From NCBI GenBank assembly GCA_025360325.1, contig JANYCI010000340.1, positions 1 to 44,885 of the forward strand: a stretch of DNA of 44,885 nucleotides. Reading direction: 5' to 3'. A program made the translations under genes and the position numbers. This DNA is from Limisphaerales bacterium. GTDB taxonomy: Bacteria; Verrucomicrobiota; Verrucomicrobiia; Limisphaerales; UBA11358. The notes under the pieces were generated by a model. It did not search any database. It was not told the origin of the DNA and saw only the letters and a list, made by a program, of their open reading frames with translations. Positions 3,577 to 20,774 of the stretch are shown here, piece after piece (the stretch's first letter is position 1; each line of letters opens with the position of its first letter).

Positions 3577-3631
3577 GGGTGGTAACTGTTGCACAGTTGG
3601 AAACGATGCGCCATGGATTCAAGTTGCAAAT

Positions 3632-4810
3632 TTATTGCAGCCGGGAAACGACACTGTTGGTTGGCGCCACCGAGGCCTGGCTGGTTGCGGGCGACGCGTT
3701 CAATGTCCAGTGCTCACGCCATTTCAAAATCGGCTTGCCCACTTCGGAAAATTCCAGTGGCAGCCAGACATAGCGCGAGTCAGGCAAGCTCCATTGGTTC
3801 CACCGGTCGGCCATGAAAATAAATGTGTCGGCCCGGCCTGCCACCGGCAGCACAAACGTGCTTTGTGAACCAAATGTTTTATCTGCATCTGTGCCAACGC
3901 AGGGGTTGCCCAGTTCCGTCCACGGGCCAAAAATGTTGTCCGCCACGGCGGAGCGCGCGGCATTAGGTGCCCACGCGGTGCAGCCGGACGCGATCAAATA
4001 ATACTTGCCGGCATGCTTGAACACCGTTGGTGCTTCCATGCTGCGGCCAATGAATATGCGGGCATACTTGCTCGCCGGTCGCAAATAGTCGTCCGTCAGC
4101 AGCGAGATGTGCATCACGGGATTTTCTTCGGAGGAATAAAATTGATACGCCTTGCCGTCGTCATCTACAAAGACCGTCATGTCGCGCGCCATCTGGCCGC
4201 CCACGAAATCGCGGGCCAGCACATTTGTCTCACTGGGTTGTTTGTCAGCCTCGGCAATGTTATCCGGCCAGACACCCGCATTCGGGCGAAAGCTTTCGAG
4301 ATACTTAAACGGCCCTGTTGGTTTGTCACTTACAGCCACGCCTGAACGTGCCGCTGCATAACTGGCGCTGTCTATGTGCATCCACATGACAAACTGTTTT
4401 GTGCTTTTATTATAGATCACTTTAGGCCGTTCCAGAGCCTTGCTAGGATGCAAGTCACTATTGGTATTGTCAGTGACAGCAGATAAAGCCAATCCTTCAT
4501 TCTTCCAGTCGTAAAGATTGGTAGAGGAATAGCAGGATACGCCCGTCACATCCACGCGTGTGCCGCCCCAAGACTTGTTGCAATCCGGCAAGTAAGTCTT
4601 ACCCGCCTTGAACTCGCCATACCAGTAATAGACACCGTCGTGAAACAATACCCCGCCGCCATGGGCGTTGATCGGCTTGCCAGCGGTATCATTCCAAGTC
4701 TCGCCCGGAGCGAATTGTGGCTCCAGCGCCAGCGCACCGACACGGCTGCTCAAAACCAAAACTGCGCCCAATAGTAGTTGGCGGGCAAATAATCTAATAA
4801 CTAGCTTCAT
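3632..4810 (-). CDS. Secreted glycoside hydrolase family 43 (subfamily 24-like, exo-beta-1,3-galactanase-like)
   Basis: INAHGGG...YYWYGE, LERPKVIYN, ARDMTVFVDDDG, MEAP, SQSTFV, FMADRW motifs. Start moved to ATG 4810 (MKLVIRLF..., signal peptide) because the track's extension runs through a terminator. Confidence 0.85.
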   Translation of the reverse strand: MKLVIRLFARQLLLGAVLVLSSRVGALALEPQFAPGETWNDTAGKPINAHGGGVLFHDGVYYWYGEFKAGKTYLPDCNKSWGGTRVDVTGVSCYSSTNLYDWKNEGLALSAVTDNTNSDLHPSKALERPKVIYNKSTKQFVMWMHIDSASYAAARSGVAVSDKPTGPFKYLESFRPNAGVWPDNIAEADKQPSETNVLARDFVGGQMARDMTVFVDDDGKAYQFYSSEENPVMHISLLTDDYLRPASKYARIFIGRSMEAPTVFKHAGKYYLIASGCTAWAPNAARSAVADNIFGPWTELGNPCVGTDADKTFGSQSTFVLPVAGRADTFIFMADRWNQWSLPDSRYVWLPLEFSEVGKPILKWREHWTLNASPATSQASVAPTNSVVSRLQ

Positions 4811-4875
4811 AATAATTCTATTGCGTTGCGGTAGGACGACCGGATGTTGCCACGCGACGGGTATCAATTCACTAG

Positions 4876-4917
4876 AAAAAATTTGCGGGGTGTCGGAACC
4901 CAAGCCGACACCCCGCA
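4876..4917 (-). terminator. Rho-independent terminator
   Basis: 13-bp perfect stem tgcggggtgtcgg (4884-4896) / ccgacaccccgca (4905-4917), followed on the minus strand by AATTTTTT; lies just downstream of the ORF ending at 4950. Confidence 0.75.
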
Positions 4918-4949
4918 CTCACTACGAGTCTCCTAACTCGCCAAGTTAC

Positions 4950-5834: not shown

Positions 5835-6235
5835 TCTGTTGCCATGCCCATTTTGGTGATTTCGAGTTGGCGCAGCGTATCGAGCACGCCGACCATGACT
5901 TGATAATCCGTGTCGTCCGCGCCTTTCACCACCACGCCCATTTCAGAATCAGCGGCTTTGAGCGCGGCGAGTTTTTCTTTTAGTTCCGGCGCGGTGACAG
6001 GTTGATGATCCAGCGTGATTTGCCCCAGCCCGTTCACTTCGATACGCGTCGGGTCCGTCTTGGGTTTATCTTTCGGCGCTTTGCCCGATGGCAAATTGAT
6101 TTCCAAATTATTCATCATCTGCGGCGTGGTGATGATGAAGATCACCAGCAACACAAACACGAGATCGAGCAACGGTGTGATGTTCAACTCCGTCATCGTG
6201 CCGTGGCCGCGCTTGGTGGTTTTCTTGAGGCTCAT
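5831..6235 (-). CDS. exbD: Biopolymer transport protein ExbD/TolR (copy 2)
   Basis: ELNITPLLDLVFVLLVIFII with the conserved TM Asp; VVVKGADDTDYQVMVGVLD. Confidence 0.92.
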   Translation of the reverse strand: MSLKKTTKRGHGTMTELNITPLLDLVFVLLVIFIITTPQMMNNLEINLPSGKAPKDKPKTDPTRIEVNGLGQITLDHQPVTAPELKEKLAALKAADSEMGVVVKGADDTDYQVMVGVLDTLRQLEITKMGMATE

Positions 6236-6891
6236 TGTAAAACTGGCTCCGTCTCTTCCTGCACGTCGAAACGCACAGTGACGTGATCGGGAAAATTTGT
6301 CGGCGGTCGGCGATCAATGCTCGTGACGATTTTGAAAACTTCTTTCACCGTCTGATCCCACTTGGAATCGCCGCTACCTTTTTGCCATTCGACATGGCTC
6401 AAGCCGCCTTGCTTATCCACGTTCACCTGCACCTCGGCGGCGAAAGCATCATCCGCCATATTTTCCGGTCGCTGCCATTTCGAGCGCAGCACATACTCGA
6501 TATAGCCTTTGTAAAGCTGCACCGGATCGTTCTCGGACAAAACGGTTTTGCCGCCCGCAAAATCAAAGCTCGGCACGTCCACGGCAGCGGGCGCGACCAC
6601 TGGCGGCGCAACCGTGGGTGCAACTTTCGGCGCTTCAATTTTCGGCGGCTCCACTTTTGGCGGAGTTGCTTTTGGTGGTTCAACCTTCGGCGGTTCCTTG
6701 GGTTTTTCCGGCTCCGGCCTTTTTTCAACCACTTTTGTCACCGTGATCGTTTGAATTTTTTTGCCGAGATAGCCTTCGCGCGCTGCAAAATAAACTAGTG
6801 CCACGATGATGACGCCATGCACCACCGCTGAAATAGTCAGGTTGGTTTTCGACGAATTCTTCGGTGCTCTCGGTTTGGATTGCGGAATCAT
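6232..6891 (-). CDS. tonB: TonB/TolA-family energy transducer
   Basis: TM helix with S-xxx-H (ISAVVHG), Pro/Lys/Glu-rich linker, C-terminal domain (W..P...GSGDSKWD). ATG 6891 overlaps the upstream exbD stop (ATGA). Confidence 0.8.
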   Translation of the reverse strand: MIPQSKPRAPKNSSKTNLTISAVVHGVIIVALVYFAAREGYLGKKIQTITVTKVVEKRPEPEKPKEPPKVEPPKATPPKVEPPKIEAPKVAPTVAPPVVAPAAVDVPSFDFAGGKTVLSENDPVQLYKGYIEYVLRSKWQRPENMADDAFAAEVQVNVDKQGGLSHVEWQKGSGDSKWDQTVKEVFKIVTSIDRRPPTNFPDHVTVRFDVQEETEPVLQ

Positions 6892-7295
6892 TTCGGCACT
6901 TCCGTTGCGAGTTCGAGTTTTGGCACGTTCGCCTGCTGGCACAAATCCAGCACGGCGCGGATGCCTTTGTATTTCGTTTTGCCATCGCCGCGCACGATGA
7001 TGTTCAAGTCAGGATCATCCGTCCGCATACTGATGAGCTTGGCGAGCAAATCGTCCATTTTTATTTCCTCGCGGTTCAAAAAAAGTTTTCCATCCGCCTG
7101 TAACGAAACGTAATTTGCCTTGCGCGGCGGGTCTTTCAGGCTCTTGCTCGCGACGGGCAATTTCAAATCCTTGTCCTCCACCGGCGGAATAGTGGTGATG
7201 ATAAAAATCACCAGCAACACGAACGCCAAGTCCAGCAGCGGCGTGATGTTCAATTCCGTCAGCGACTCGTGCGCGCTGTGCGAACATTTTTTCAT
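6888..7295 (-). CDS. exbD: Biopolymer transport protein ExbD/TolR (copy 1)
   Basis: ELNITPLLDLAFVLLVIFII; IIVRGDGKTKY. Confidence 0.92.
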   Translation of the reverse strand: MKKCSHSAHESLTELNITPLLDLAFVLLVIFIITTIPPVEDKDLKLPVASKSLKDPPRKANYVSLQADGKLFLNREEIKMDDLLAKLISMRTDDPDLNIIVRGDGKTKYKGIRAVLDLCQQANVPKLELATEVPK

Positions 7296-7339: not shown

Positions 7340-8173
7340 TCATTGGCCGACCGTTTCCTCCGCCGCCACGCGCCGCAAGGCATTGGTGAACTTGTCCTCG
7401 ATGTCGCGGTTGTCCACATAGGCGTGCTCCACCTGATTCGCAAAACGCGATGCAAAACCATCCAACTCCTGCGTCAGTTGGCGGATGGTCGTCACCATGA
7501 AGTTGTAAGCGAACATCGCCGGAATCGCGACCATCAGGCCGACGACCGTTGCGATAAGGGCACCCGCCACGCCGGGCGCCATCGTGGTGAGGCTCGCCTG
7601 ATTGGCTTTGGCAATGCCCGCGAACGTTTCCATCACGCCCCACACCGTGCCGAGCAAGCCGATGAACGGGCCGCCCGCGACCGCCGTGGACAACACGATC
7701 ATACCTTTTTCCAGCGACATCGCCTGCGCGCCAGCGGATTCTTCCAAAACCACTTTCACCGCCTCGAACGAAGCCGTGCTGACCTTCGTGGTCGTCTGCT
7801 GCGCCAGCCGGTCCGTGTCACCCGTGCCGGAGCTGTGATTCGCCAGTGTTCTCACCGACACCGGATTATTTTTCAAGTGATAGTTCACTTCATCCGCACC
7901 GCGCACATACAGTTGATAAGCGGGCGCGCCGTTGAACTCCGTGCCTTTTTTGTGGATGCCCATCGGGTCGCGCGTCTGCGCGTAAGCATCGTAAAATTTT
8001 TTTGACGCCCGTCGCGCGATCCACAACTGGCGAAATTTTGTGATGATGATCGTCCAACTGAACATCGAGAGGATGAACAGCACGCCGATCGTGAGCTTGC
8101 CTTCCGGCGTGGCTTTTTCAAACGCGAACTGCAACGCGTTCGCGGCGAACATGGGATGAAGAATTGTGGTCAT
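7340..8173 (-). CDS. exbB: MotA/TolQ/ExbB proton channel protein
   Basis: LFILSMFSWTII; GPFIGLLGTVWGVMETF; APGVAGALIATVVGLMVAIPA. Confidence 0.93.
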   Translation of the reverse strand: MTTILHPMFAANALQFAFEKATPEGKLTIGVLFILSMFSWTIIITKFRQLWIARRASKKFYDAYAQTRDPMGIHKKGTEFNGAPAYQLYVRGADEVNYHLKNNPVSVRTLANHSSGTGDTDRLAQQTTTKVSTASFEAVKVVLEESAGAQAMSLEKGMIVLSTAVAGGPFIGLLGTVWGVMETFAGIAKANQASLTTMAPGVAGALIATVVGLMVAIPAMFAYNFMVTTIRQLTQELDGFASRFANQVEHAYVDNRDIEDKFTNALRRVAAEETVGQ

Positions 8174-8457: not shown

Positions 8458-11400
8458 TCAAAGTTTCGGCGTCTTGGTGTCCGCCTCGGATAATTTTTTT
8501 AACGTCGGCAAAAAAACGGTGACACGACTAACTTTTTGCGCGAGCGCGATGCCCTTTTTCTTTTTAGTCAGATCCTCTTCTGACGCGTCGTTTTTCGCCG
8601 TGTCATTTTTGGTCGCCTCTGAGGAAGCACCCGTGCTGGCGGCGTTTGCGGCGGTGCCGACCTCGGTGCCTTTTTGCCCACTGGTGCCGCCGGAAATCGC
8701 TCCATTGGAAATCAGCGCGGCATCAATACTCCCGCCGCTCGCGCTCACGCCGCCCACGCCGATGAGCGTGCCAGAGACATTGCCACCGGCACTCGCGCTG
8801 ATGCTGCCTTGGGCGAGCGCGGTGACATTCACGTTTTGCTGCGCGCTCAAGTCAATCGTGTTGCGCGCAAAAATCACGCCGAGGATGCTGCCGCTGCTTT
8901 GCAATTTCACCGTGCTGCCGATGACGCCGGAGCCGCTCGCATCAATGTCGCGACCATCAGAAATTTTCACCGCCGTGCCGTTGTGAAGATTTGCCGCCGT
9001 CACCGCCTGCCCCGCGCTGTCGCGCATTTCGTAGCCAGCCAACACCTGCACGATCGCATCTGGCGCTTGGTTATGGCTGAATGGTAATTGCACGATTCCA
9101 CCCGCGCTGGCATTGACTTTGCCGTTCGGTGTTTCGACCAGAAGGTTGCCAACGAGGTTGTCTGAATTGGGAAATAACTGCGGATCAACTGACGGCGGAA
9201 AAGTCGTCGCCAAAATGCCGCTGCCGGGAATGGACGGCGTGTAAGTTTTCACCGCGTGCGTCACCGGGTCCACAAAAACTTCCGTGACCGCTGCGACCCC
9301 GCGTCCGCCCGTGCCGGCATTGATATCGCCATGCAATGATTCAACGGTGACGTTGCCGCCGTCATAGGCCGCGATGCGCGAACCGTTCACATTGATGTCG
9401 CCACCAGCCACCACGAGCACGTCTGCTTTCGCCGCCGTAAAAATGCCGCGCGCCACCGCATCGCTGCCCGCGAAAGTCGTCGAGCCGACATTGACATTGC
9501 CACCCGCGCGCACCGTCACCGCGCCGCCGTTCTGCGACGAAATCGTGGTGGAAAACATATTGAGATCGTGCGTGAGGTTCACGTTGATGGCCGCGCCGTG
9601 ATTGAAATAATTTGCAAGCGCAGTGTTGTTGATCGGGCCGACGGATTGGATGCCGAGCGTGGCGCCCAAATCCATATTGCGGGCAGTGAAATCAAACTTG
9701 CCGCCGCCGCCGATAAAATAGCCGGTGCCAGCCGACGTGGGAATGTCCTGCGTGGAATTGTAGAGATCGGTGGCTTGGGCGGAGTCGAGAATGGAAACCG
9801 TGGCGAGGACAGGATTGCCCGCGTCATCCACGAGCAGGTTGCCCTCGGCATCGCGCCGCTGGATAGTCAAGCTCGTGAGCGAGGCGAATTGGTCGCTGCT
9901 CATGCGACCTTGAAACGTCAGGACGTGCGTGGTCGGATCGTAGTTCAACCGGCTCAACAGCGCGGCGAAAGTATCTCTGTAAGGATATGCCTGACCCAGC
10001 AGCGCGAGATCAGGCGCGCTCGCCAGCGTGAGGGTGGTGAACTCATTGCGGTTCACAATGTCGCCGGTGACATTGATGCGCGTGGTGTCCGTGGCGGATA
10101 AATTTTGCCCGCTGAACCGGCTGTTATTCAGGTTGCCGCCGACGTTGATCATCGCGGCTTCATTGGCGTTGAACAGCACGCCGCTCATGTCGCCGGAAAT
10201 ATTCAGCATGACTGGCGTGGAATTATTCAAATGCAACGGCACCGGCGCGTGGCCGGTGAACGCAGAGTTTTTAAGGTATTGTCTATCGGCACTGTCAGAC
10301 ATTGTGAGTGCCGTGAGACCACTAGACGAGGTGCCGCTGAAATTACCGCTGGCCGTCGTGGTGATTTGCACGCTGCCTTGCGCGGAAGGAAACAACATCA
10401 CATCGCGATCCAGGGTCACGCCACCCGCGCCCGCCGTGAGATTGAGGATGCTGGGGAAAATTTCTGGGATGCCCGCTTCAAACTTGCCGCCGTTGCGCGG
10501 CAGACCGGCACCGGAAAGTTCGATGCCGTTACCCGCCACCAAGCTCACCGAGGCGTCGGGTGCGTAATCAAAAAAATGCTGGCTGGGAGATGGCTTGCCG
10601 CCGCTGGCGTTGCCGTTGAGCGAATTGAAAATACCGTTCGGGTTGCGAACTTCTTGAAGAAAAATATTATCCGCCGCCGTCACGTTCCAGCCGCCTTTCA
10701 CGAGGCTCAACGCGAGTTGTTTTCCAGAATTTCCGGCGTCATTACCAGCAGTGATTTTGCCCGCGCCATTCGCGACGACAAAATGTCCGAGCACATCGCG
10801 CCCGGCATTGATAGTGACATCGCCCGCCGCGCTGCCAAACGCGCCGCTCCCCGCATCGCCGCCGGGCGTTTTGGTCGTCGGCTGAAAACTGATCACATCC
10901 AGTCCGGCATTGAGCGTCACGTTGCCGCCTGCCGCCGTGCTGATGCCGCCAAGTTCCGAATCCACCGCGTAATTTGCCGTGCTGCCATCGGTCGGAGCTT
11001 GAAATACATAGCCCTTCGCTGCCGTGCCGGTGTTGATCGAACCGCCGAGCGCAGTCGCATTGATGTTGCCGCCACCCGTCGTCCGCACGAAGCCTGCGCC
11101 GACCATGATGTTATTGCCCGCGAGCAAATTCACCTCTCCGGAGTTCATCTGAATCGCGCCGCTGAAATTTTTCCCGTTGCCGCCGTTGAGAAAAATATTT
11201 CCCGTGCCGACCTGCGGAATGCCCGTGGAAAAATCCACGCCCGCCAGCACGTTCAACGCCCACGCGCCGCCATCGGTGATGAGTGAATTGTTGCCAAAAA
11301 TCACATCGCCACCGGCCAGCAACGAAACCGTCCCTGACGTGATGCCTGCGGTCATGCCGCTCAAATCCCAGATCGTGCCCGCGCTCAACGTGATGTTGCC

Positions 11401-12588
11401 CGTGGCTTGTAATTTGATGTTGGAAAAATTTTTATTCGCGAACGCCGTGTTCACATTCAGATTCAGCGTGCCGCCGCCGCTCGGCCCAACCGTGCCATCG
11501 CCGGGAATAGTGCCGCTGCCGGAATTGCCGATCACGATGTTTGCTGGGTCGAGCAAAAATTCGCTGCCGGTGAAACCTGCCTGCGCGCGGGCATCCATCG
11601 CCGAATCCAGCGACCTCACATTCGGCGCGCTCACTTCCACATTGCCGCCGTTGCCGCCGTGCGCGCCACCGGTCGTGACGATGGAACTCGACGCCGTGTC
11701 GTGAAAATTATTTTCCGATTTCAACGTCACCGTTCCGCCCGCGCTGCCGACGAGCGCATCATCACCGCGCGCAAAAATTTTTGAATGGTCGCCCAGACTT
11801 AAATCATCGGCGGCTAAAAATTCGATGACTCCATTTTGATTTCGCACCGAGTTCGCCTGCACGAGTCCATCCTGATTCACCACTTTGGCATTGAGCGCGA
11901 CCACTCCGCCATCCGCCACGATGTTGCCGTAATTATTCACCGCACCGCGCGGCAGCACCACATCCATGCTCATGCCGCGTCCATCAGGCCGTTCGCTCAA
12001 CGTCACTTTCTGACCGGCGGCAAAACCGATGCTGCCGCCGGGCGCTTCGAGATCGCCATGATTTTCCACCTTGTCCGCGATGAGAAAAACACTGCCTTTT
12101 TCGCCGACTTTGATCGTCCCGAAATTCACGATGCTCGCGAGCGGCGGTGGGCCGTTGAATTCCCACGCGCCGCCGGAATTTTGCGGTGGCATACAATTCG
12201 CAGTGGACACCACGAGTCCCGCCGCGCTGACGAATGAGTTCGGCCCAAAATAAAAGCCCGATGAATTCAGCAGCACGACGACGCCGTTCGCTTGAATGCT
12301 GCCGAAAATTTGCGATGGATTCGGATCGTTCACGCGGTTCCACACGATGGACGTGGCGGAGGGCTGATTGAAAATCGTGCGCTCGCCGTTCGCGATGTTG
12401 AACGTGGACCAATTGATCTGCGCGTTGTTCGCCGCGTTGACGGTGAGCTGCTGGCCGTTCACGGAAAAAGTGGCCACGCCGTTTTGCACCGTGAAGCCGG
12501 TAGGCAAAGCGACGGCGTTGCCAGTCAATGCCGCCAGCATTGCCGCCGTAGTGGCATGATGAGAACGGAGATTTTTTTTCTTTCTCAT
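8458..12588 (-). CDS. Filamentous-haemagglutinin-family two-partner-secretion exoprotein (TpsA-like)
   Basis: Signal peptide then TPS domain (INWSTFNI...FNQP...VWNRV...SQIFGSIQANGVVVLLNSSG), LLDPANIVI motif, long G/N/T/A-rich beta-helical repeats. Start ATG 12588 (MRKKKN...) preferred over 12660. Confidence 0.88.
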   Translation of the reverse strand: MRKKKNLRSHHATTAAMLAALTGNAVALPTGFTVQNGVATFSVNGQQLTVNAANNAQINWSTFNIANGERTIFNQPSATSIVWNRVNDPNPSQIFGSIQANGVVVLLNSSGFYFGPNSFVSAAGLVVSTANCMPPQNSGGAWEFNGPPPLASIVNFGTIKVGEKGSVFLIADKVENHGDLEAPGGSIGFAAGQKVTLSERPDGRGMSMDVVLPRGAVNNYGNIVADGGVVALNAKVVNQDGLVQANSVRNQNGVIEFLAADDLSLGDHSKIFARGDDALVGSAGGTVTLKSENNFHDTASSSIVTTGGAHGGNGGNVEVSAPNVRSLDSAMDARAQAGFTGSEFLLDPANIVIGNSGSGTIPGDGTVGPSGGGTLNLNVNTAFANKNFSNIKLQATGNITLSAGTIWDLSGMTAGITSGTVSLLAGGDVIFGNNSLITDGGAWALNVLAGVDFSTGIPQVGTGNIFLNGGNGKNFSGAIQMNSGEVNLLAGNNIMVGAGFVRTTGGGNINATALGGSINTGTAAKGYVFQAPTDGSTANYAVDSELGGISTAAGGNVTLNAGLDVISFQPTTKTPGGDAGSGAFGSAAGDVTINAGRDVLGHFVVANGAGKITAGNDAGNSGKQLALSLVKGGWNVTAADNIFLQEVRNPNGIFNSLNGNASGGKPSPSQHFFDYAPDASVSLVAGNGIELSGAGLPRNGGKFEAGIPEIFPSILNLTAGAGGVTLDRDVMLFPSAQGSVQITTTASGNFSGTSSSGLTALTMSDSADRQYLKNSAFTGHAPVPLHLNNSTPVMLNISGDMSGVLFNANEAAMINVGGNLNNSRFSGQNLSATDTTRINVTGDIVNRNEFTTLTLASAPDLALLGQAYPYRDTFAALLSRLNYDPTTHVLTFQGRMSSDQFASLTSLTIQRRDAEGNLLVDDAGNPVLATVSILDSAQATDLYNSTQDIPTSAGTGYFIGGGGKFDFTARNMDLGATLGIQSVGPINNTALANYFNHGAAINVNLTHDLNMFSTTISSQNGGAVTVRAGGNVNVGSTTFAGSDAVARGIFTAAKADVLVVAGGDINVNGSRIAAYDGGNVTVESLHGDINAGTGGRGVAAVTEVFVDPVTHAVKTYTPSIPGSGILATTFPPSVDPQLFPNSDNLVGNLLVETPNGKVNASAGGIVQLPFSHNQAPDAIVQVLAGYEMRDSAGQAVTAANLHNGTAVKISDGRDIDASGSGVIGSTVKLQSSGSILGVIFARNTIDLSAQQNVNVTALAQGSISASAGGNVSGTLIGVGGVSASGGSIDAALISNGAISGGTSGQKGTEVGTAANAASTGASSEATKNDTAKNDASEEDLTKKKKGIALAQKVSRVTVFLPTLKKLSEADTKTPKL

Positions 12589-12610: not shown

Positions 12611-15562
12611 TCAAAATTGCCCGCCCGCGCCAAAATAAACGTGCATTCCATCGCCGCCATAATTGTTGGCGATAGATTTTGGAAATGGGTTCATGACCGG
12701 CCAGGCCAGCATGACGCGCGCATCCAGATGGCTGCCAATGCTGGCCGTGAGACCACAACCAGCGCCCATAAACTCGATGCTCTTGGGCGTTTGCGGCGTG
12801 GTTGAATAGGTAAATAATTGCCCGTAGTCCAAGAACACGGAGCCGCGCATCCACATCGGCACATCGCCGTCCCATACCCCGACATTGATCAATGGTGTCC
12901 GGGGTTCGATGGACGCGCGCCAGCCGGCATCACCTTGACTTGAGCCTTCAGAAAAACCGCGCACGCCAGCGGTGCCACCCATCGAAAAGCGTTCGTTGGA
13001 AAAGAGCGGCGTGGAGGCCCACTGGCCATCGGCGCGTATCAGCATCGTCCAGTCGTGATACAGCCGTTGCTCGCGCACAACGCCCGCTTGGATGGTGAAA
13101 TAATTATCCCGCGCCCGCGCTGGCGTGTTCGTGGAAATGACGTGCGTGACGGCATTGCTGATTATGGTAGCTGGCACACCCGCGCTGTAAGCCAGTTGCG
13201 AGAGCGAGCCGACGCTACCGATATTGTAATTGCCTTGAACATTGAACGAGGACGAACCGTATTTATCCGGGTGAAAAGTGCTGAAGCCTAGGTTGAGCGG
13301 AAAATAGGTCACCGCCGAGTGCCGCGTCGGTTGCGCTGAAGGAATCGTCTGAATCAGGTTCGTCGGCCCGAACTGGTTCGTGTAGGTGATCGTGGCAATA
13401 AAGTTGTTAGTATTGTAACTGACTTGGTTGTATTGCTTGTAGTCCACGCCGAATGAAAGGCTGGAAGCAAACTTGCCCAAAGTTGGTAAGGGTAAATTAA
13501 ATTTTGCACCGAGGTTTTGATTCAGCGTGACGTTCTGGCCGGAGTCTTGCGAATCAATCACCACTAGGTTTGGCGGCGGAATAATGTGCTTGAGAGTGCC
13601 CAACTGAACGCCCGTATCAGAAACCGCGCGGGAGGTGTAAAGCGTCAGTTCGGGATGCCCGGACGGCGGCGGCATGACAAACTTGTGCGTGACTTCGTTG
13701 TAGCCAAACTGCCCGTGGCCATCGTCAATCTGCTTCTGGATGGATTGCGTGTGCGCCAGCGGCAGCCGGTAATAAAGACTCTGGTTCGCGATCAGCGGCA
13801 GGTCGAGCGGCGAAAAATAAAAATTTTTTCCGCTGTTAAAACTCAATGGCGAAAAACCGTAGGCGAAACCGATCTGATGTTCCAACTGCCAGAGGTTGCC
13901 GTATTGGGCGTTGCCGGTGACGCGCGCCTCCGGCGTGCCGGGCGTGCCGGAGTTGTTGATCTCCACGCGACCGTGGACGGGAAAACGGTCTTTCACTTTC
14001 AGCGCCAGCTCGGTCGTGCCCGGCTCCGGGCCGGGGCTGATGACGGGATAAATTTGGCGGTCACGATTCGCGTTCGCCGCGTCCAGTTCGGTTTGAAAGA
14101 CGTGTGAATTCAGCATCATGTTCGAGCGCAGACTGGGCAACGAACGTAAAACATTTTCGGTGCTGAAATACTCGTTGCCCTTCACGGTCACGCCAGATAA
14201 ACGCCCTTCGGTCACTTTGATTTTCACCGTGGCGTTCGTCAATTTCTGCGGCGGCAAGGCTACCGACACCGTGACGAAACCACGTTCACGATAGGCCATC
14301 TGCAAATCTCCGAGCAGCCCGCGAATGTCGCCGAACACCACGTTTGTGCCGAACGCCGTCGGCGAATTGAGCAGAATTCGTTGCAATTCATTTTCCGGCA
14401 GCAACGAATTTCCTTCGACGAGATAATTTTCCACCTTGAATCCCGCCACCGCATTGGTGGCGGCAGCTTCAGATTTTTTGGCATTGCCCTCGGCCAGTAG
14501 CGTCGGCGACGCCGTCACCAAAATCGTGACCGCTGGTTTCACGGGCGCGGTGTCTGGCGGGAGTGTCACCGGCAAGCTGCTGGGGTCTTGGCGAATCACC
14601 GGCGGGGCTTCAAATAATTTTTGAACGAGCGCCGCCCGCGCTGCCGCTTGCTCCGGGTTGTCCTGCAACTCGGCGCGCACTTCGCCCGCGCAGGCGAACG
14701 AACCCACCACCGCCAGCATTGCCAGTGTGCGATTAGAACTTTTTTTTACCGCCTTCGGAAAATTTTTCTGACGCCACTCGCCCGGCGTGAGGCCGAAACG
14801 TTTTTTGAACATCGTGTTGAACAGGCCGAGGTGCCGGTAGCCGCTCTCGTAAGCGACGTTGATGATTTTCGCGTTGCTGTCCACCAGCAGTTGCCGCGCA
14901 CGCAGGAGCCGTAGTTCGGTCTGGCGATTGCGTAAGGCCACGCCGAATTCCTCGCGAAACATCCGGCTGAAATGGCGCTCGCTGCAATTCAACTCGCCGG
15001 CCAGTTCGGGTAGCAAGCGGATGGCCAGTTCCGCGTCGGGCATTTTACCGATGAATTCCCGGAAACGTTCCCGTAGCCGCAGTTGCAAATTGGCGTCCGG
15101 CACGGGCGCGGTGAGCATATTGCCGATGGCCTGCGACCAGAGTTGCAGCAACCCGGAACGCACCGCCAGCCCCTCGCGCTGTGGCTGGGCGACGAGATGT
15201 TTGAACTTTTGCCCGATGGTATCCTGCGCCGTGAATAAAAAAACTGGCGCGGTATTTTTATCTTCGCACCGCTCCAGCCGGTGCGTCTCCGCGACCGTGA
15301 GCAAGCCGTTGAGAAACTGCGGCTGCACCAAATAAAATTCGAGCCGCAACTGACCGAGCGAACTAGCGCGCAAAATAAATTGAGCGCGGCCATTACAAGT
15401 AAAGCCGTCGCCGGGATTCAGTTCCCGCGCATTGCTGCCTTGCCGCGAATAGCCGACGCCCTCGGCGACACGCAGCACCGTCCAGCCTTGCGCGGACGGA
15501 GTCCATTCGCCGGCGGGATGCAGGGTCAGTTCCTGCAACACCAAGTGTCGTTCAATCGTCAT
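12611..15562 (-). CDS. Fusion: AraC-family regulator + internal signal peptide + POTRA + ShlB/FhaC/HecB (TpsB) beta-barrel
   Basis: AraC double HTH (LAGELNCSERHFSRMFREEFG...LLRARQLL...IINVAYESGYRHLGLFNTMFKKRFGLTPGEWR); then KKSSNRTLAMLAVVGSFACAGEVRA; POTRA (FKVENYLVEGNSLL...YRERGFVTVSVALPPQ); Omp85 motif GGTAGVRGF; C-terminal Phe. Confidence 0.85.
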   Translation of the reverse strand: MTIERHLVLQELTLHPAGEWTPSAQGWTVLRVAEGVGYSRQGSNARELNPGDGFTCNGRAQFILRASSLGQLRLEFYLVQPQFLNGLLTVAETHRLERCEDKNTAPVFLFTAQDTIGQKFKHLVAQPQREGLAVRSGLLQLWSQAIGNMLTAPVPDANLQLRLRERFREFIGKMPDAELAIRLLPELAGELNCSERHFSRMFREEFGVALRNRQTELRLLRARQLLVDSNAKIINVAYESGYRHLGLFNTMFKKRFGLTPGEWRQKNFPKAVKKSSNRTLAMLAVVGSFACAGEVRAELQDNPEQAAARAALVQKLFEAPPVIRQDPSSLPVTLPPDTAPVKPAVTILVTASPTLLAEGNAKKSEAAATNAVAGFKVENYLVEGNSLLPENELQRILLNSPTAFGTNVVFGDIRGLLGDLQMAYRERGFVTVSVALPPQKLTNATVKIKVTEGRLSGVTVKGNEYFSTENVLRSLPSLRSNMMLNSHVFQTELDAANANRDRQIYPVISPGPEPGTTELALKVKDRFPVHGRVEINNSGTPGTPEARVTGNAQYGNLWQLEHQIGFAYGFSPLSFNSGKNFYFSPLDLPLIANQSLYYRLPLAHTQSIQKQIDDGHGQFGYNEVTHKFVMPPPSGHPELTLYTSRAVSDTGVQLGTLKHIIPPPNLVVIDSQDSGQNVTLNQNLGAKFNLPLPTLGKFASSLSFGVDYKQYNQVSYNTNNFIATITYTNQFGPTNLIQTIPSAQPTRHSAVTYFPLNLGFSTFHPDKYGSSSFNVQGNYNIGSVGSLSQLAYSAGVPATIISNAVTHVISTNTPARARDNYFTIQAGVVREQRLYHDWTMLIRADGQWASTPLFSNERFSMGGTAGVRGFSEGSSQGDAGWRASIEPRTPLINVGVWDGDVPMWMRGSVFLDYGQLFTYSTTPQTPKSIEFMGAGCGLTASIGSHLDARVMLAWPVMNPFPKSIANNYGGDGMHVYFGAGGQF

Positions 15563-15721
15563 TTTGCAGCGCGCAGGATGTCGCAGCGAAATGGCGGCTG
15601 CGTTTCAACAACGTGACGAACTGGCAACTTTAGGAAAAATTTCATGTCCGAATAGTGCAGGCGAATTGTGTTGAACGGGTCGCCGACCTAGAAGTTTTGG
15701 CAAAGCGGATTCATCAGCGGC

Positions 15722-15760
15722 AAAAAAAGAACCGGCGCGGTGTGCGGTCACCGCGCCGGT
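15722..15760 (-). terminator. Rho-independent terminator after the PstS-like gene
   Basis: 12-bp perfect stem accggcgcggtg / caccgcgccggt followed on the minus strand by TCTTTTTTT. Confidence 0.85.
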
Positions 15761-15789
15761 CTGGGGGGGAGGGTTGGCAGATGTGTTGA

Positions 15790-17031
15790 TTAAGGCGCGA
15801 TCGGACCGCCAACGGAAGTGCGGAGAACGTTCATGTCGCCCAAGCGGATCGCGTTGCGCGTCGTTTGCGTGGCGATGTCGCCATCAACGGTGTCAACGCC
15901 GCCGACAAAGTTTTCCGGGTTCGAGGTGTCGTAGCCGCAAAGTTTGCGGGTGAAGTTCAGGATGTCGGTGGCATTGATGGTATTGTCGCCGCCGGGGGTC
16001 TTGGGTTGGGCCACGATTTCATACGCCCAATAACTATATTGGCCGTTGCGGCACGAATCATACGACGGCACAGCGGGCACCGCCGCACCAGTCTTGATGT
16101 CGGTGGAAGGATAAGCTCCGTTGTAGGACAGGATGTTCAAGCCCCCGTTCACACCGCGCGCATCGCTGATGCCGACATAGCCGATGGCCACGCACTTGGC
16201 GTTGGAAGCCAAGGCCGGAACTTTCAACACATTGGCCAGATCGCTGCCGCCCACATAGCCGTAGCCATAAAGCGCCGGGCCGAGATTGTTGGTTGCAGCA
16301 TAAAAATTGGCCACGCCGCCGTTGGTCTGCCAGTAATACACCTGCGGCGAACCGGAGACGTTCGCATCCGCATAGGCCGTGACGCGCGTGCCGGAGTCCA
16401 GCGTGCGGTTCACGAGATAGCAGTTCGTGCCCGCGTCGTTGGTGTTGCCAGTGAGATAGGAGAGCTTCACCACGCCGTTGGGCATGAACTGCTGCAACTG
16501 CTGGATGGTGATGTTCGTCACGGTCGCCGGGCAATTCAAGCTACGGACGTAGACGAAGGGTTGCAATGCCACCTGACGTTCAATGAAAGATGCGGCGGCC
16601 AGCGGATACGCCGTCGAGGCCGAGTCCACGTCGGTGAACGCGAGCGTCGCGGTGTTCGTGGTCAGCACCTGGTCGTTCAGCGTGGCGTTCTTGAAATACA
16701 CGCCCTTGTCCGTCACGTCGTAGAGCGCATGGATGCCCTGCACCGAGCCGTTGAAGTTGGCGTGAACAATCACCGTCTGCGAACCGAAGACGGTGCTCAT
16801 CTGGCCGGAGGTGGTCCAGCGGCTGGCCGTCGGGCTGAACGTGGCGGCACCGCTATTCATCGTGAAGGCACTGGAATAGAGGTTGCTAACGGCAAAGAAC
16901 GCGCTCGAGCGGAATGCGGTCGAGCCGGTGAGATAGATGTCTTTTGTTTGCGCCTGCGCGGAGCTGACTCCGAGCAAACAGCCGAGGGCAGACAAGGCGA
17001 GGATTTTTTTCATGGGGTTTAGTTGTTTCAT
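15790..17031 (-). CDS. Secreted PstS/DING-like periplasmic-binding-fold protein
   Basis: Signal peptide (MKKILALSALGCLLGVSSAQA; alternative start 17013). Motifs LTGSTAF, NRTLDSGT, AIGYVG and NGQYSYW parallel the PstS GST, RxxxSGT, IGYV and GxYP motifs in order. Confidence 0.6.
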   Translation of the reverse strand: MKQLNPMKKILALSALGCLLGVSSAQAQTKDIYLTGSTAFRSSAFFAVSNLYSSAFTMNSGAATFSPTASRWTTSGQMSTVFGSQTVIVHANFNGSVQGIHALYDVTDKGVYFKNATLNDQVLTTNTATLAFTDVDSASTAYPLAAASFIERQVALQPFVYVRSLNCPATVTNITIQQLQQFMPNGVVKLSYLTGNTNDAGTNCYLVNRTLDSGTRVTAYADANVSGSPQVYYWQTNGGVANFYAATNNLGPALYGYGYVGGSDLANVLKVPALASNAKCVAIGYVGISDARGVNGGLNILSYNGAYPSTDIKTGAAVPAVPSYDSCRNGQYSYWAYEIVAQPKTPGGDNTINATDILNFTRKLCGYDTSNPENFVGGVDTVDGDIATQTTRNAIRLGDMNVLRTSVGGPIAP

Positions 17032-17064: not shown

Positions 17065-18045
17065 TTATTGTGCAGAAATCATGTAGAAGCGCGGAGTCGT
17101 GGTGGTGGTTTCAGTGAGTGATTGCACCGAATTGTTGCCGCTCACCGAGCCAAGCACCGTCCATGATGCCTTGGGGGTGGTGAGTGTGCTCGTGGCGCGC
17201 AACGTGTAAGTGCCGCTGGAGCCGGTCGTGAAATTAACTGTTGAAAGAGTGCCAACGCGAGTGATTCCCGTGATGACCGGCGTCGTCACCGAGCCGATTG
17301 AGGCAGCGGTAAAAGTCAGCGCACCGCTCGTGCTCAATTGAAAATAACCGAGGTAGGTGGAGGGCGGATGGGAAACGACTGTGCCGCCCGGAACGATCCA
17401 ATACAAATCCGCCCGCACCGGCGAGCCATCGGTCGTGAACGTCGAGGAAGTCGTCTGCTCTGTGATGCCAAAACCGCCCCAGTTGCCAGACACCCCGAGC
17501 AAGCTGTTATAGCTGAACGTCGGCGAGACATTCAACGCCTCGGCCTCGATCAGATAATTCGGCTGGTTCGTATTGACCGCCGCCGGCAACGACGCGCCGA
17601 TGTAATTGCCACCATAACCCGCGCCGTCAACCTTGGCCCGCGTGGTTCCCTGAGCGCTCGCGATGTAACGCAGCCAAGGCGACGACTGAATGTTGTTATC
17701 CGTCCGGGCACGCGTCATGAACAAAGTGTTCTGCTGCGCCGCATCGGGATAAGTCACATCAAAACAGCCGAACGCCGACCACGCTAAATCGTTCGTCGTT
17801 CCAAAAGCGTGCTTCAGCAAAGTGCCAGACAAGTTCGCGATCGTGATCGTGGTTCCCGGCGTCTGGTTGGTGAAGGAAGCGGCCGAACCCGCCCTGACCA
17901 CCAAGTCATTATTGCCACCCGCCGTCAGGCGGAAGCCGACGAGGAGGTCACCATTGTTGTAAGAAAAGGTCTGTGCATTCGTCGCGCAAGCCAGAGCCAG
18001 CGCGGTGCCCGCACAAACTTTTTTGCTCAAAGAAAAAATGTTCAT
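17065..18045 (-). CDS. Secreted/surface protein with verrucomicrobial C-terminal domain
   Basis: Signal peptide ending ATNA-Q; YNNGDLLVGFR N-terminus; Thr/Ser-rich; C-terminal PVITGI...YTLRAT...SW...PRFYMISAQ. Start could be 18045, 18066 or 18075. Confidence 0.75.
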   Translation of the reverse strand: MNIFSLSKKVCAGTALALACATNAQTFSYNNGDLLVGFRLTAGGNNDLVVRAGSAASFTNQTPGTTITIANLSGTLLKHAFGTTNDLAWSAFGCFDVTYPDAAQQNTLFMTRARTDNNIQSSPWLRYIASAQGTTRAKVDGAGYGGNYIGASLPAAVNTNQPNYLIEAEALNVSPTFSYNSLLGVSGNWGGFGITEQTTSSTFTTDGSPVRADLYWIVPGGTVVSHPPSTYLGYFQLSTSGALTFTAASIGSVTTPVITGITRVGTLSTVNFTTGSSGTYTLRATSTLTTPKASWTVLGSVSGNNSVQSLTETTTTTPRFYMISAQ

Positions 18046-18550
18046 AGGTTTGTTGGTTAGTTTCATCACCAACATCCTAGAGACATTTGCTCACTTAAAC
18101 TTTCAGCTTGCGGCCAGCGAGGTTCACAATTACGCCAACCGTCCGCGCTAGATTTGCCCGGTGAAACAATGCGGAATTACTCATTAGCTCGGGCGCGCGA
18201 ATAATAAAACGGCTCGCGTTGCTTGATTGTAACTTATCTGAAGCCTGCATCCGCCGCGCATTTTCCGAAAAATCAATTTACCATTGCGAGCACAACCAAA
18301 ACTTTTTCAATGGTGCGCGCCAGTAGTGAGGTTAAGTCGAAAGGAATTTTTTTCGGAAAATTCGCGAATCCACCGCCGCCAGCACGAGGAACGGCAGTAA
18401 CAAAATCACCATCCGAAACAGCCATTTGCGCCGTGGCGTCAGCGGAGGCGCGCAGCGGGTGGGCGACGAATCGGGTTTGACTGGTAAGATTCTGACTTCA
18501 AAAACCCTCCCGAGCTCGTTTTTTTGAACTACGATTTCAGATGCCGCTTT

Positions 18551-18952
18551 CTAAAAAAGTTGATCCAACGGATTACATTCTTTAGATGGCTGCCAATAAG
18601 TCGTCGCTCCTTTTTTTTGTTTGAGCTGCAACGGGTCTTTACCCAGCAACCGCAAAACCCAGCCCACCGGCGTGATGACGAAAATAAAAAATACCAGCAG
18701 CACGCAGCGGCCGATGAACTGGCTGGAATAAAATCCTAGCCACAACGAAACCCGATACCATCCGCGAAACCAGCGCGGTTGCAGCATGGCGCAGAGTGCC
18801 ACTACCGCGAGAACCGCGAGGATCACACACCAGACATTTTGCGGCAGATGCTTCCGCCAGCGCAGGAGCGAACTGATGAGCGCCAATCCCAACGCGGTTA
18901 GCAGCGTGGACTTGCGCCACTCCTTCGGCTCTTCTTGGTAAATCAGTTTCAT
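18551..18952 (-). CDS. SxtJ-family membrane protein
   Basis: Hydrophobic helices, FFIFVITPVGWVLRLLGKDPL and TYW...LDQLF C-terminus; immediately downstream of the carbamoyltransferase. Confidence 0.75.
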   Translation of the reverse strand: MKLIYQEEPKEWRKSTLLTALGLALISSLLRWRKHLPQNVWCVILAVLAVVALCAMLQPRWFRGWYRVSLWLGFYSSQFIGRCVLLVFFIFVITPVGWVLRLLGKDPLQLKQKKGATTYWQPSKECNPLDQLF

Positions 18953-18953
18953 C

Positions 18954-20774
18954 TCAATCAGCTTGCGGTAGTATGCGGCGGGAAATTTTCTGCTGCGGTT
19001 GCGCGGTGCGTTCGATCACAAAATTTCCCAAAATGAGATAGTCCATCTCCGTGTTCATGAAGCAACGATACGCATCGTCCGGCGTGCAGACAATCGGTTC
19101 GCCGCGCACGTTGAACGATGTGTTCACCAGCACGCCGCAACCCGTCTTCTGCTCGAAGCGTTGGAGTAAATCATATAGGAGCGGATTTCCTTCTGCGTCC
19201 ACGGTTTGAATGCGCGCGGAATAATCCACATGAGTGATGGCCGGCAGCGTGGAGCGAATTTCCTTCAGCCGGTTGAGTCCCGTCGTGTCCGGCGCAACGG
19301 CGCGGCACAATTCTTTTTTCACCGGCGCGACCAGCAGCATATACGGCGACTCGACATCGAGATCAAAATAATCCGCCACGCGTTCGCGGCGGACGATCGG
19401 CGCAAACGGTCGGAATGATTCCCGGAACTTCACCTTCAAATTCATCACCGACTGCATCTTCGTCGAACGCGCGTCGCCGATGATTGAACGGTTGCCGAGC
19501 GCGCGCGGGCCGAATTCCATGCGCCCTTGGAACCAACCGATGACCTTTTCGGCTTTCAAAATTTCCACTGTGAAATCGAGCAATGCGTCTGGTTCCAGCT
19601 TTTGGAAAACGGCGTTGTGCGAGCGCAACACAGTTTCAATTTCGTCATCCGAAAATTCCGGCCCCAACAGCGAGGCTTGCATCGAATCCAAAGGCGCGGC
19701 CACGCGTTTGTTTTCTTTCTGCGCATGCCACGCGACGAGCGCGGCGACGAGCGCACCGCCGGCATCACCCGCCGCCGGCTGAATCCAAATCCGCTCAAAA
19801 ATTTTCGCGCGCAGAATGATTCCATTCGCCACGCAGTTGAGCGCCACGCCGCCGGCCATGCACAAATTTTTCTGGCCGGTCACTTCGCGCGCGTGCCTGA
19901 CGAGCAGCACCATGATTTCTTCCGTGACCAGTTGGATGGAGCGAGCGACATCCATGTGCCGCTGCTCGATTTTCTCCTCCGCCCCGCGCGGCGGCCCGCC
20001 GAAAAGCCGGTAAAATTTTTCATTGGTCATCGTCGTGCCGCGCAGAAAATTGAAATACTCCAAGTTCAGCCAGAACGAGCCGTCGGGCTTGAGGTCGAGC
20101 AATTCGCGACGGATAGCGTCGGCGTATTTCGGTTCGCCATACGGCGCGAGGCCCATGAGTTTGTATTCGCCGGAGTTGATGCGGAAACCGCAGTAGTCAG
20201 TGAACGCGGAATAAACCAAGCCGAGCGAATGTGGAAAGCGGAGTTCCTTCAGCATCTTGATTTCACGGCCGCGCCCGTGGCTGATGGTCGTGGTCGCCCA
20301 TTCGCCCACGCCGTCAATCGTGAGAATCGCCGCCTCGTCAAACGGCGACGGATAAAATGCGCTGGCCGCGTGCGATTGATGATGCTCGGTGAAAAGAATT
20401 TTGCAATCCGGCCGCAGTCCCGGCAGTGCCGCGCGGATGGCTTTGCGTAAATCCAGTTTCTCACCGAGCCAGTTCGACACCACCGTGGGAAACGTCCGCC
20501 AGCCGCCGGGCGCGACGGCCAGATACGTTTCGAGCAGCCGTGTAAATTTCAAGACCGGCTTGTCGTAAAAAACGACGGCATCGAGTTGTGCCGTCGTCAG
20601 GTGCGCGTGACGCAGGCAAAATTGCGCGGCGTGATGTGGAAAATCGGCATCGTTTTTCTTGCGGGTAAAACGTTCCTCCTGCGCGGCAGAAATAATTTTT
20701 CCATCCACGACCAGCGCGGCGGCCGAGTCGTGATAATACGCCGAGACGCCCAAGATGTTGCGTGGCGCGGGCAC
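18954..20774 (-). CDS. O-carbamoyltransferase (NodU/CmcH/TobZ family)
   Basis: SAYYHDSAAAL, QEERFTRKK, HHQSHAASAF, DGVGE, GEYKLMGLAPYG, EFGPRALGNRS, KFRESFRPFAP, NTSFNVRGEPIV. Confidence 0.95.
   Translation of the reverse strand: MPAPRNILGVSAYYHDSAAALVVDGKIISAAQEERFTRKKNDADFPHHAAQFCLRHAHLTTAQLDAVVFYDKPVLKFTRLLETYLAVAPGGWRTFPTVVSNWLGEKLDLRKAIRAALPGLRPDCKILFTEHHQSHAASAFYPSPFDEAAILTIDGVGEWATTTISHGRGREIKMLKELRFPHSLGLVYSAFTDYCGFRINSGEYKLMGLAPYGEPKYADAIRRELLDLKPDGSFWLNLEYFNFLRGTTMTNEKFYRLFGGPPRGAEEKIEQRHMDVARSIQLVTEEIMVLLVRHAREVTGQKNLCMAGGVALNCVANGIILRAKIFERIWIQPAAGDAGGALVAALVAWHAQKENKRVAAPLDSMQASLLGPEFSDDEIETVLRSHNAVFQKLEPDALLDFTVEILKAEKVIGWFQGRMEFGPRALGNRSIIGDARSTKMQSVMNLKVKFRESFRPFAPIVRRERVADYFDLDVESPYMLLVAPVKKELCRAVAPDTTGLNRLKEIRSTLPAITHVDYSARIQTVDAEGNPLLYDLLQRFEQKTGCGVLVNTSFNVRGEPIVCTPDDAYRCFMNTEMDYLILGNFVIERTAQPQQKISRRILPQAD

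Follow-up and report, generated by a model that had tools for sequence, protein, structure and literature searches.

The stretch of DNA analyzed here, a 44,885-nucleotide contig of a Limisphaerales bacterium (GenBank assembly GCA_025360325.1, contig JANYCI010000340.1; hereafter the window), carries on its reverse strand a gene of a soil/sediment verrucomicrobium in which an AraC-type transcriptional regulator and a TpsB outer-membrane transporter of two-partner secretion are encoded as one protein. The gene is a single open reading frame (ORF; 12611..15562, minus strand) of 983 aa that begins with ATG and ends with a TGA stop codon at 12611-12613, and the encoded chain runs from the AraC regulator through a Sec-type signal peptide (aa 270-297) into the TpsB transporter. 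It stands in the gene order 336-aa gene, 413-aa gene, araC-tpsB, tpsA, exbB, exbD, tonB-like. An original prediction for this DNA had described a 983-aa frame containing an AraC module, a signal peptide, a POTRA domain and an Omp85 barrel ending in Phe, and this description is borne out by the ORF listing and by Pfam.

The AraC part starts with a domain (aa 1 to ~160; 15083..15562, minus strand) that is β-rich and then helical and that, judging from its modeled structure, is presumed to serve sensing or dimerization. In the AlphaFold2 (AF2) model, for which a 112-sequence family alignment was the input, its strands lie within aa 10-79 and 10-residue blocks have predicted local distance difference test (pLDDT) scores of 81-95 for aa 11-150; aa 1-160 returned no family match in Pfam or NCBIfam. 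The N-terminus of the fused ORF, MTIERHL, agrees with the family consensus MxxERHLILQE. Farther along the chain lies the AraC-type double helix-turn-helix (HTH) DNA-binding domain (aa 187-265; 14768..15004, minus strand), which is matched by HTH_18 over aa 187-265 (78.9 bits against a Pfam cut-off of 33.6) and by HTH_AraC over aa 229-265 (49.5 bits against 26.6), and aa 184-264 hold many invariant columns of the family alignment. The hallmark of the AraC/XylS family, a C-terminal domain of ~100 aa with two HTH motifs, is present in this part of the protein, and the best partial matches in NCBIfam were to RhaS, AraC and others, all under their equivalog cut-offs.

On the other side of the signal peptide, the C-terminal ~690 aa form the transporter for the adjacent TpsA. 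In this part, a ShlB-type POTRA domain (aa 375-453; 14204..14440, minus strand) is matched by POTRA_2 at 47.5 bits against a Pfam cut-off of 24, and an Omp85/ShlB β-barrel (aa 682-983; 12614..13519, minus strand) ends in F983, with Pfam matches to ShlB over aa 771-939 (61.5 bits against a cut-off of 22.7) and to Omp85 over aa 682-983 (26.5 bits, above the cut-off). The VRGY/F motif of loop 6 is a hallmark of TpsB proteins; here it reads VRGF at aa 867-870 (12953-12964), and the corresponding alignment columns (V867, R868, G869 and Y870) are at least 90% conserved. A ShlB-type POTRA domain followed by a C-terminal barrel, the VRGY/F motif and a partner with a TPS domain in the same locus are thus all found, and the N-terminal cleavable Sec signal peptide that is also usual for TpsB is replaced by a signal-peptide-like segment at aa 270-297, behind a 266-aa cytoplasmic module. 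The AF2 model has a mean pLDDT of 78.7, with the AraC blocks aa 11-150 and 171-260 at 81-95 and much of the barrel comparable. Scores fall below 50 over the junction, aa 271-301, as expected for two independent modules joined through a flexible or membrane segment. Foldseek searches of the pdb collection gave CdiB (6wim, E = 2.3e-24) and FhaC (4ql0/4qky) as the best matches, then BamA and TamA. Apart from the non-N-terminal position of the TpsB signal peptide, the parts are standard members of the AraC/XylS and TpsB families.

The fusion is real and conserved, and is no effect of chance or assembly, because the length of the one suspicious homopolymer at the junction is reproduced in the contigs of four runs and because the fused frame recurs in relatives. 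That homopolymer is an A8 run (14740..14747, minus strand) in the n-region codons V272-K273-K274-S275 and is the sole A run of seven or more in the ORF; one added A would yield an AraC protein of 276 aa ending in ...KKKF*. The original prediction had pointed to read support over the A-tract as a check. In Logan contigs from four runs, covering 14300-15200, we found no differing letter and no gap, and the A8 length is identical; these four runs belong to one study that is possibly the window's own source and so do not count as independent support. Five DNA rows were listed for the stretch, none of them recorded as RNA; the fifth, run X5, had a 0.07 share of the sampled words and is left out of the comparison. 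A search of a protein collection with aa 150-520 returned 682 proteins at E ≤ 0.001 among 8000 candidates scored, and each of the 120 best of these 682 carries PF12833 together with PF08479 (39-100% identity over the aligned stretch, 625-1143 aa). When one genome per species was scanned (119 relatives, best 80 loci kept), 64 of the 80 loci had a single ORF matched by the hidden Markov model (HMM) of the AraC part and also by that of the TpsB part, so that the HTH_18 plus POTRA_2 architecture, which the original prediction proposed to look for in other genomes, is widespread. The remaining 16 loci comprise 11 of an unfused sister clade, described below, and five others: L070, with separate araC and tpsB on the same strand; L088 (identical to L010, G017:C8), where a frame change within the linker splits the gene; L079, whose copy is broken into several fragments; and L090 and L092, with AraC alone. 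One of the 64 fused loci, L019, has its AraC N-terminal domain interrupted by a frame change. Among 41 genomes, AraC and TpsB share one open frame in the window's assembly (G000) and in G003, G021, G012, G024, G001, G022 and G011 of the same genus, as well as in G031 and G035 from other families of the order. An assembly error at the A-tract was rejected on the four-run contigs, the 120 listed relatives, the 64 of 80 loci and the 50 of 71 fused loci that have no homopolymer of six or more in their n-region DNA.

The relatives found all come from uncultured metagenome-assembled genomes (MAGs). By record title, the genome loci are nearly all from Verrucomicrobiota MAGs (Limisphaerales, subdivision 3, Verrucomicrobiia); L018, L049, L071 and L075 are labeled Acidobacteriota and L038, L044, L050, L057 and L086 Bifidobacteriaceae, and since these loci nest among Verrucomicrobiota on the TpsB tree the labels may be wrong. 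Database labels of the relatives read 'hemolysin activation/secretion protein/AraC-like DNA-binding protein' or 'helix-turn-helix domain-containing protein'. In the window's own assembly, which is 88.6% complete, POTRA_2 has no match other than the fusion; with a tpsA gene adjacent, the fusion must supply the working transporter.

The junction reads as had been claimed, KAVKKSSNR / TLAMLAVVGSFACAG / EVRA / E, and follows the textbook n-h-c layout of Sec signal peptides that are cut by signal peptidase I. Within this internal segment (aa 270-297; 14672..14755, minus strand), KAVKKSSNR is the n-region, TLAMLAVVGSFACAG the h-region and EVRA the c-region, and the signal peptidase I site is predicted from alignment column statistics between A297 and E298 (between 14672 and 14671, minus strand). 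The segment varies in sequence across the 112-sequence alignment and is constant in character: K/R is found at position 278 in 100 of 112 sequences and at position 273 in 84 of 109; an 11-column hydrophobic core at positions 282-292 consists mostly of L, I, V, F and A; P/S stands at -5 (position 293) in 82 of 112; the residue at -3 (position 295) is A in 58 sequences, L in 20, V in 16 and G in 7 (101 of 111 together); Ala occupies -1 (position 297) in 107 of 111, a column at least 90% conserved; and the residue at +1 (position 298) is Q in 73, E in 14 and D in 10 (97 of 111 together). These columns, read by the generally known criteria for signal peptidase I sites, are the unbiased measure, as the heuristic site picker that we also used takes the best-scoring site and is therefore biased toward AxA. 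By homology the window site reads VRA/ELQDNPEQ (the slash marks the site), comparable with PGAARA/DLQDNPEQ in P0002 and PVAARA/DFNDNPEQ in P0004. Median values over the 120 listed proteins are +3 for the net charge of the n-region and 14 residues (range 11-22) for the uncharged run that surrounds the core, a length that is short for a stable membrane anchor.

The distances on either side of the segment are likewise short. The AraC DNA-binding domain ends 14-22 aa before the hydrophobic segment, and the first POTRA-like motif follows the predicted site after 1-164 aa (median 22), with 20 aa or fewer in 59 of the 120 listed proteins and 1-10 aa in several. In the window itself, aa 298-374 (14441..14671, minus strand) make up the periplasmic linker with which mature TpsB is predicted to start, and they include a conserved helix, PEQAAARAALVQKLF, at aa 303-317. 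The original prediction had allowed that relatives might all keep araC and tpsB apart, with an independent start for the transporter; instead, most are fused, and a Met between the end of the HTH domain and the hydrophobic core is present in just 11 of the 120 listed proteins, so that the TpsB of this family appears to be without a start of its own. The sole in-frame ATG that the window offers encodes M282, which lies inside the h-region in a column otherwise occupied by L, V, I or A. A family-wide internal TpsB start was accordingly rejected, on the 11 of 120 count and on the lack of conservation at M282. Four proteins (P0058, P0065, P0072 and P0103) form a subclade of long forms in which an extra segment is inserted after the first hydrophobic segment, and in P0058 a Pro stands immediately behind the AxA of that first segment.

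Runs of A7-A9 occur in the n-region DNA of 11 of 71 fused loci, each time as the sole such run in the ORF; besides the window, the loci are L006, L008, L013, L024, L028, L029, L037, L049, L056 and L065. Such runs could be either programmed slippage sites or merely AAA Lys codons. AAA is the commoner Lys codon (977 AAA against 861 AAG), so chance suffices to explain A runs in KK-rich n-regions. Slippage as a general mechanism was rejected on the same count of 11 of 71 loci, although it could matter in those lineages.

An unfused sister clade, consisting of 11 of the 80 loci together with L012, keeps araC and tpsB as separate neighbors. The TpsB proteins of this clade are 788-896 aa long, have an extra POTRA domain (three-POTRA forms) and start at their own Met with an ordinary N-terminal signal peptide at the equivalent position, for example MTRRYSPFFMVLERRRVILLWLTFCGWLGGAPLMA/SPSES in L071. 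One or two separate araC genes lie beside tpsB, mostly divergent, and these score 205-458 bits on the HMM of the AraC part, with the closest gene per locus at 406-458 bits. In a FastTree phylogeny of the TpsB part (79 of 88 sequences distinct, several rows being the same genomes fetched twice), the 12 unfused rows form one clade with support of 100, and the fused state occupies the remaining deep branches. The tree needs four state changes, namely the main split between fused and unfused forms, L005, L088 and L070; that at L005 is a labelling artefact of contig-end truncation, and that at L070 is a real separate arrangement but sits on a long branch, and the long-branch joins L053+L070 and L083+L064 are unsafe. 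The tree and the neighbors in the unfused clade together indicate that AraC and TpsB are functionally linked neighbors that became one gene and were kept so down to ~40% identity.

Upstream of the fused gene we located a candidate operator for the AraC module, a 20-bp direct-repeat motif, TAAAGTTGCCAGTTCGTCAC, at 15613..15632 (minus strand), 70 nt upstream of the start codon. The motif came from a Gibbs search of 55 distinct upstream stretches, where it begins, for most loci, 63-70 nt ahead of the start codon and is placed elsewhere in five (L011, L053, L069, L072 and L083). Its family consensus is tgTTGTTtCAaAATTGTCAC, with two TTGTnnC-type half-sites 11 bp apart; a site of 20 bp whose half-sites are spaced by one helical turn is what a single AraC-type domain, with its two HTH motifs, would be expected to contact. 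Outside the training set, the unfused loci have copies of the motif in front of both tpsB and araC, scoring 21-27 bits, and also at the tpsB stop, immediately ahead of tpsA, scoring 14-22 bits. Across the 64 fused loci, scanned on two strands over 839,565 nt, 79 sites reached at least 17 bits: 45 at the trained position, a count that is circular, 18 at 13-29 nt past the fused stop and before tpsA, 15 further upstream, 1 elsewhere downstream and none inside the fused ORF. From these positions it seems probable that the AraC part regulates its own gene cluster. A terminator-like hairpin with a T-run (15730..15761, minus strand; 13 pairs, 10 of them G-C) follows the 413-aa gene, which would make the fused gene the first of its own transcription unit; the hairpin search found this one site against a shuffle mean of 0.7. 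No sigma-70-type promoter was found in 15450-15850.

The genes around the fusion, all on the minus strand, form a two-partner secretion cluster. The TpsA cargo (8458..12588) has ~1376 aa when counted from the ATG at 12588-12586, the longer ORF call of 1400 aa overlapping the end of tpsB, and its TPS domain is matched by PF05860 at 89.9 bits in Pfam and by TIGR01901 at 67.3 bits. Next come an ExbB-like gene (7340-8173; PF01618, 98.9 bits), an ExbD-like gene (6888-7295; PF02472, 90.3 bits) and a TonB-like gene (6232-6942; PF13103, 34.3 bits). Where the flank was long enough, 56 of 62 fused loci have a TpsA homologue downstream and 47 of 49 an ExbB homologue; a TonB-like homologue was found in 22 of 47, where the 6-kb flank restricts the count. 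For a two-partner secretion cluster, a TonB-type energizer of its own is unusual. Upstream of the fusion are genes for two signal-peptide-bearing proteins of 413 aa (15790-17031) and 336 aa (17065-18075), neither of which has a match in Pfam or NCBIfam; homologues of the 413-aa protein lie upstream in 38 of 51 fused loci and those of the 336-aa protein in 37 of 51.

TpsB must reach the outer membrane and AraC must reach DNA, and the simplest route to both is a chain that is cut. Our best reading, to which we assign a probability of roughly 0.6, is that signal peptidase cuts between A297 and E298, TpsB proceeds to the outer membrane and AraC is left tethered or is released. In this scheme the AraC module would be translated and would fold in the cytoplasm, after which the internal signal peptide (aa 270-297) would engage Sec with the N-terminus remaining cytoplasmic and the TpsB part would be translocated. 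Signal peptidase I would then cut after A297, so that mature TpsB, starting at E298, could be inserted into the outer membrane, and AraC would stay on the cytoplasmic face of the inner membrane, anchored through the remnant signal peptide that follows the DNA-binding domain at a distance of 14-22 aa. There it may act on the 20-bp operator while tethered, or once a site-2 protease (S2P) or an SppA-type protease has cut the remnant in the membrane, and one AraC molecule would arise for each exported TpsB molecule. Three fates are conceivable for AraC: it may work tethered, it may be released by intramembrane cleavage, or it may be degraded and act as the unexported precursor only. A tentative extension, which we hold to be possible with somewhat less than even odds, would make AraC the functional cargo of a ~300-aa signal peptide, released by S2P or SppA such that completed export events set transcription of the cluster. 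The window's assembly encodes S26, M50 and S49 peptidases, and genes for these are near-universal (matched in 12, 14 and 11 of 14 control genomes, respectively). The available text of two reports on Escherichia coli RseP describes this protease as eliminating remnant signal peptides from the membrane and as also cleaving FecR in signaling (PMC8144685; bioRxiv 10.1101/2021.02.04.429786). The proposal of the original prediction that the polyprotein is divided by signal peptidase is thus favored by the junction columns and by the short distance from the site to POTRA; architecture and conservation are solid, and the processing of the fused chain, meaning the cleavage itself, the fate of AraC and the coupling to export, is what we infer from them.

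Several observations weigh against this reading. A folded domain of 270 aa ahead of a cleaved signal peptide is unusual for bacteria. Leu occupies -3 in 20 of 111 sequences and is less typical of signal peptidase I there; if AraC is not released, its DNA-binding domain would stand just 14-22 aa off the membrane; the second signal-peptide-like segment of P0058, P0065, P0072 and P0103 has its own Met and hints at separate initiation; and at the n-region A7-A9 runs of 11 among the 71 fused loci, slippage by +1 or -1 would produce a soluble AraC that lacks the signal peptide. The window motif scores 15.8 bits, within the maxima of shuffled sequences (mean 12.2, up to 16.7), so the weight of the candidate operator rests on its conserved position and its recurrence in untrained loci. 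No other convincing site for the motif was found in the window and none upstream of the 336-aa gene; the next-best scores, 16.8 bits at 6323-6342 (inside the TonB-like ORF) and 15.2 bits at 26952-26971, both lie within the shuffled range.

These points bear differently on the alternative explanations. The cut chain might serve as a sensor of export state, in which the remnant of AraC and signal peptide is degraded, AraC acts as the unexported cytoplasmic precursor and a build-up of precursor feeds back on transcription. We regard this as unlikely. It draws on the same signal-peptide and operator evidence and is computationally indistinguishable from the preferred scheme; S49 and M50 peptidases that could clear signal peptides are present, and a spacing of 14-22 aa could make a tethered AraC sterically poor at DNA, whereas the closest separate araC genes of the unfused clade (406-458 bits) appear to encode ordinary soluble regulators and the strong conservation of the whole AraC part suits a stably active regulator at least equally well. 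Production of two proteins from the one ORF, by an internal TpsB start or by slippage on the A run, with the full-length fusion as a minor by-product, seems to us quite unlikely. The 276-aa AraC that an extra A in the A8 run would produce, the solitary A7-A9 runs, the second Met-led segment in the four long forms and the separate same-strand araC and tpsB of L070 would suit such an arrangement, but an A run of seven or more is absent from 60 of 71 fused loci and a homopolymer of six or more from 50 of 71, and common AAA Lys codons give A runs by chance. Moreover, a Met is available in so few relatives, with M282 itself in the h-region and not conserved, and selection for the fused product is indicated by a frame that has stayed open across ~40% identity.

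The original prediction had also raised an uncut one-component signaller spanning the envelope, with cytoplasmic AraC, an inner-membrane anchor, a periplasmic linker and the outer-membrane barrel in one chain. The window's linker is long (77 aa from E298 to POTRA), and the ExbB, ExbD and TonB-like genes of the cluster recall trans-envelope signaling; yet the core spans 11 columns with an uncharged run of median 14, the cleavage-site pattern is the sole conserved signature of an otherwise variable segment, and the 20 aa or fewer between site and first POTRA in 59 of 120 proteins would hardly bridge the periplasm. In the unfused clade, moreover, this position is taken by a plain signal peptide at the N-terminus, and we consider the uncut signaller disfavored and very unlikely. 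An assembly or sequencing artefact, or a pseudogene arising from loss of a stop codon, might be suspected from the A8 homopolymer at the junction and from the few relatives that are split or fragmented (L088 = L010, L079, L019). Its probability is close to negligible, given the same run length in the four-run contigs, the fused frame in 64 of 80 loci and in all 120 listed proteins, and the strong conservation of both modules.

Comparison with known systems yields several partial analogues of the fusion. TpsB transporters such as FhaC, ShlB and CdiB share with the fusion the ShlB-type POTRA domain and barrel, the VRG(F/Y) motif, the C-terminal Phe and an adjacent TpsA, and differ from it in that the signal peptide of the fusion is internal, behind a complete 266-aa AraC. 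The unfused Verrucomicrobiota clusters have the same AraC subfamily, the same TpsB subfamily and the same 20-bp motif; in contrast to the fusion their araC is separate and mostly divergent, their TpsB has its own Met and N-terminal signal peptide, and they form their own clade. In ToxR, TcpP and CadC, as in the proposed topology of the fusion, the DNA-binding domain lies N-terminally in the cytoplasm, and a single hydrophobic segment connects it to an extracytoplasmic part. The fusion has none of the OmpR-type winged helix, full transmembrane helix and periplasmic sensor that mark ToxR and CadC, and carries instead an AraC-type domain, an h-core of 11-14 residues, a conserved cleavage site and TpsB as its extracytoplasmic part. 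Chloroplast Toc75, an Omp85 member, has a bipartite presequence that is finished by a type I signal peptidase, and Rem of mouse mammary tumor virus has a long signal peptide that acts after cleavage. The two are precedents for an extension removed by signal peptidase and for a functional signal-peptide extension, respectively, but they are eukaryotic or viral and involve no bacterial transcription factor. The proposed logic is shared with the regulated intramembrane proteolysis of anti-sigma factors (RsiV; RseP on RseA, FecR and signal peptides), where a cut on the periplasmic side of a protein whose N-terminus is cytoplasmic is followed by S2P cleavage that frees the cytoplasmic part to alter transcription; in the fusion, by contrast, the cytoplasmic part is the DNA-binding regulator itself, the extracytoplasmic part is an outer-membrane transporter and the proteolysis is predicted from the sequence. 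For RsiV (the subject of PMC4183432), signal peptidase is the enzyme that makes the first cut.

Full-text literature searches returned no paper on an AraC-TpsB or HTH_18-POTRA_2 protein, and in the available text of an Omp85/TpsB survey (PMC4104836) the terms AraC, HTH, helix-turn-helix, transcription and fused have no occurrence. The arrangement suggests gene control that is physically tied to protein export, in a manner that we did not find described in the literature searched. If the proposed scheme is correct, the signal peptide of an outer-membrane protein would carry a cytoplasmic transcription factor as its N-terminal extension. Under the tentative extension of the scheme, the secretory precursor itself would be a latent transcription factor in a proteolytic signaling route, conserved across many Verrucomicrobiota. 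Processing of the chain as proposed would constitute a third type of membrane-linked regulator, beside ToxR-like anchors and anti-sigma proteolysis, and two-partner secretion would gain a built-in regulator with a defined candidate operator. It would also provide a natural system for following the fate of remnant signal peptides, for which the unfused sister clade is a natural control. The family is large, comprising no fewer than 120 sequence clusters and 64 genomes at species level, and so represents a recurrent solution and no one-off.

Elsewhere in the window, just upstream of the cluster, 18551-20774 (minus strand) encodes a carbamoyltransferase (606 aa) and then a small membrane protein with a weak SxtJ match (23.3 bits, under the cut-off of 24.4). 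At the opposite end, a large protein that runs off the window start (1-3594, minus strand) has a glucose/sorbosone dehydrogenase domain and weak cytochrome c matches, and a GH43-like glycoside hydrolase (3632-4918, minus strand) adjoins this dehydrogenase-type protein.

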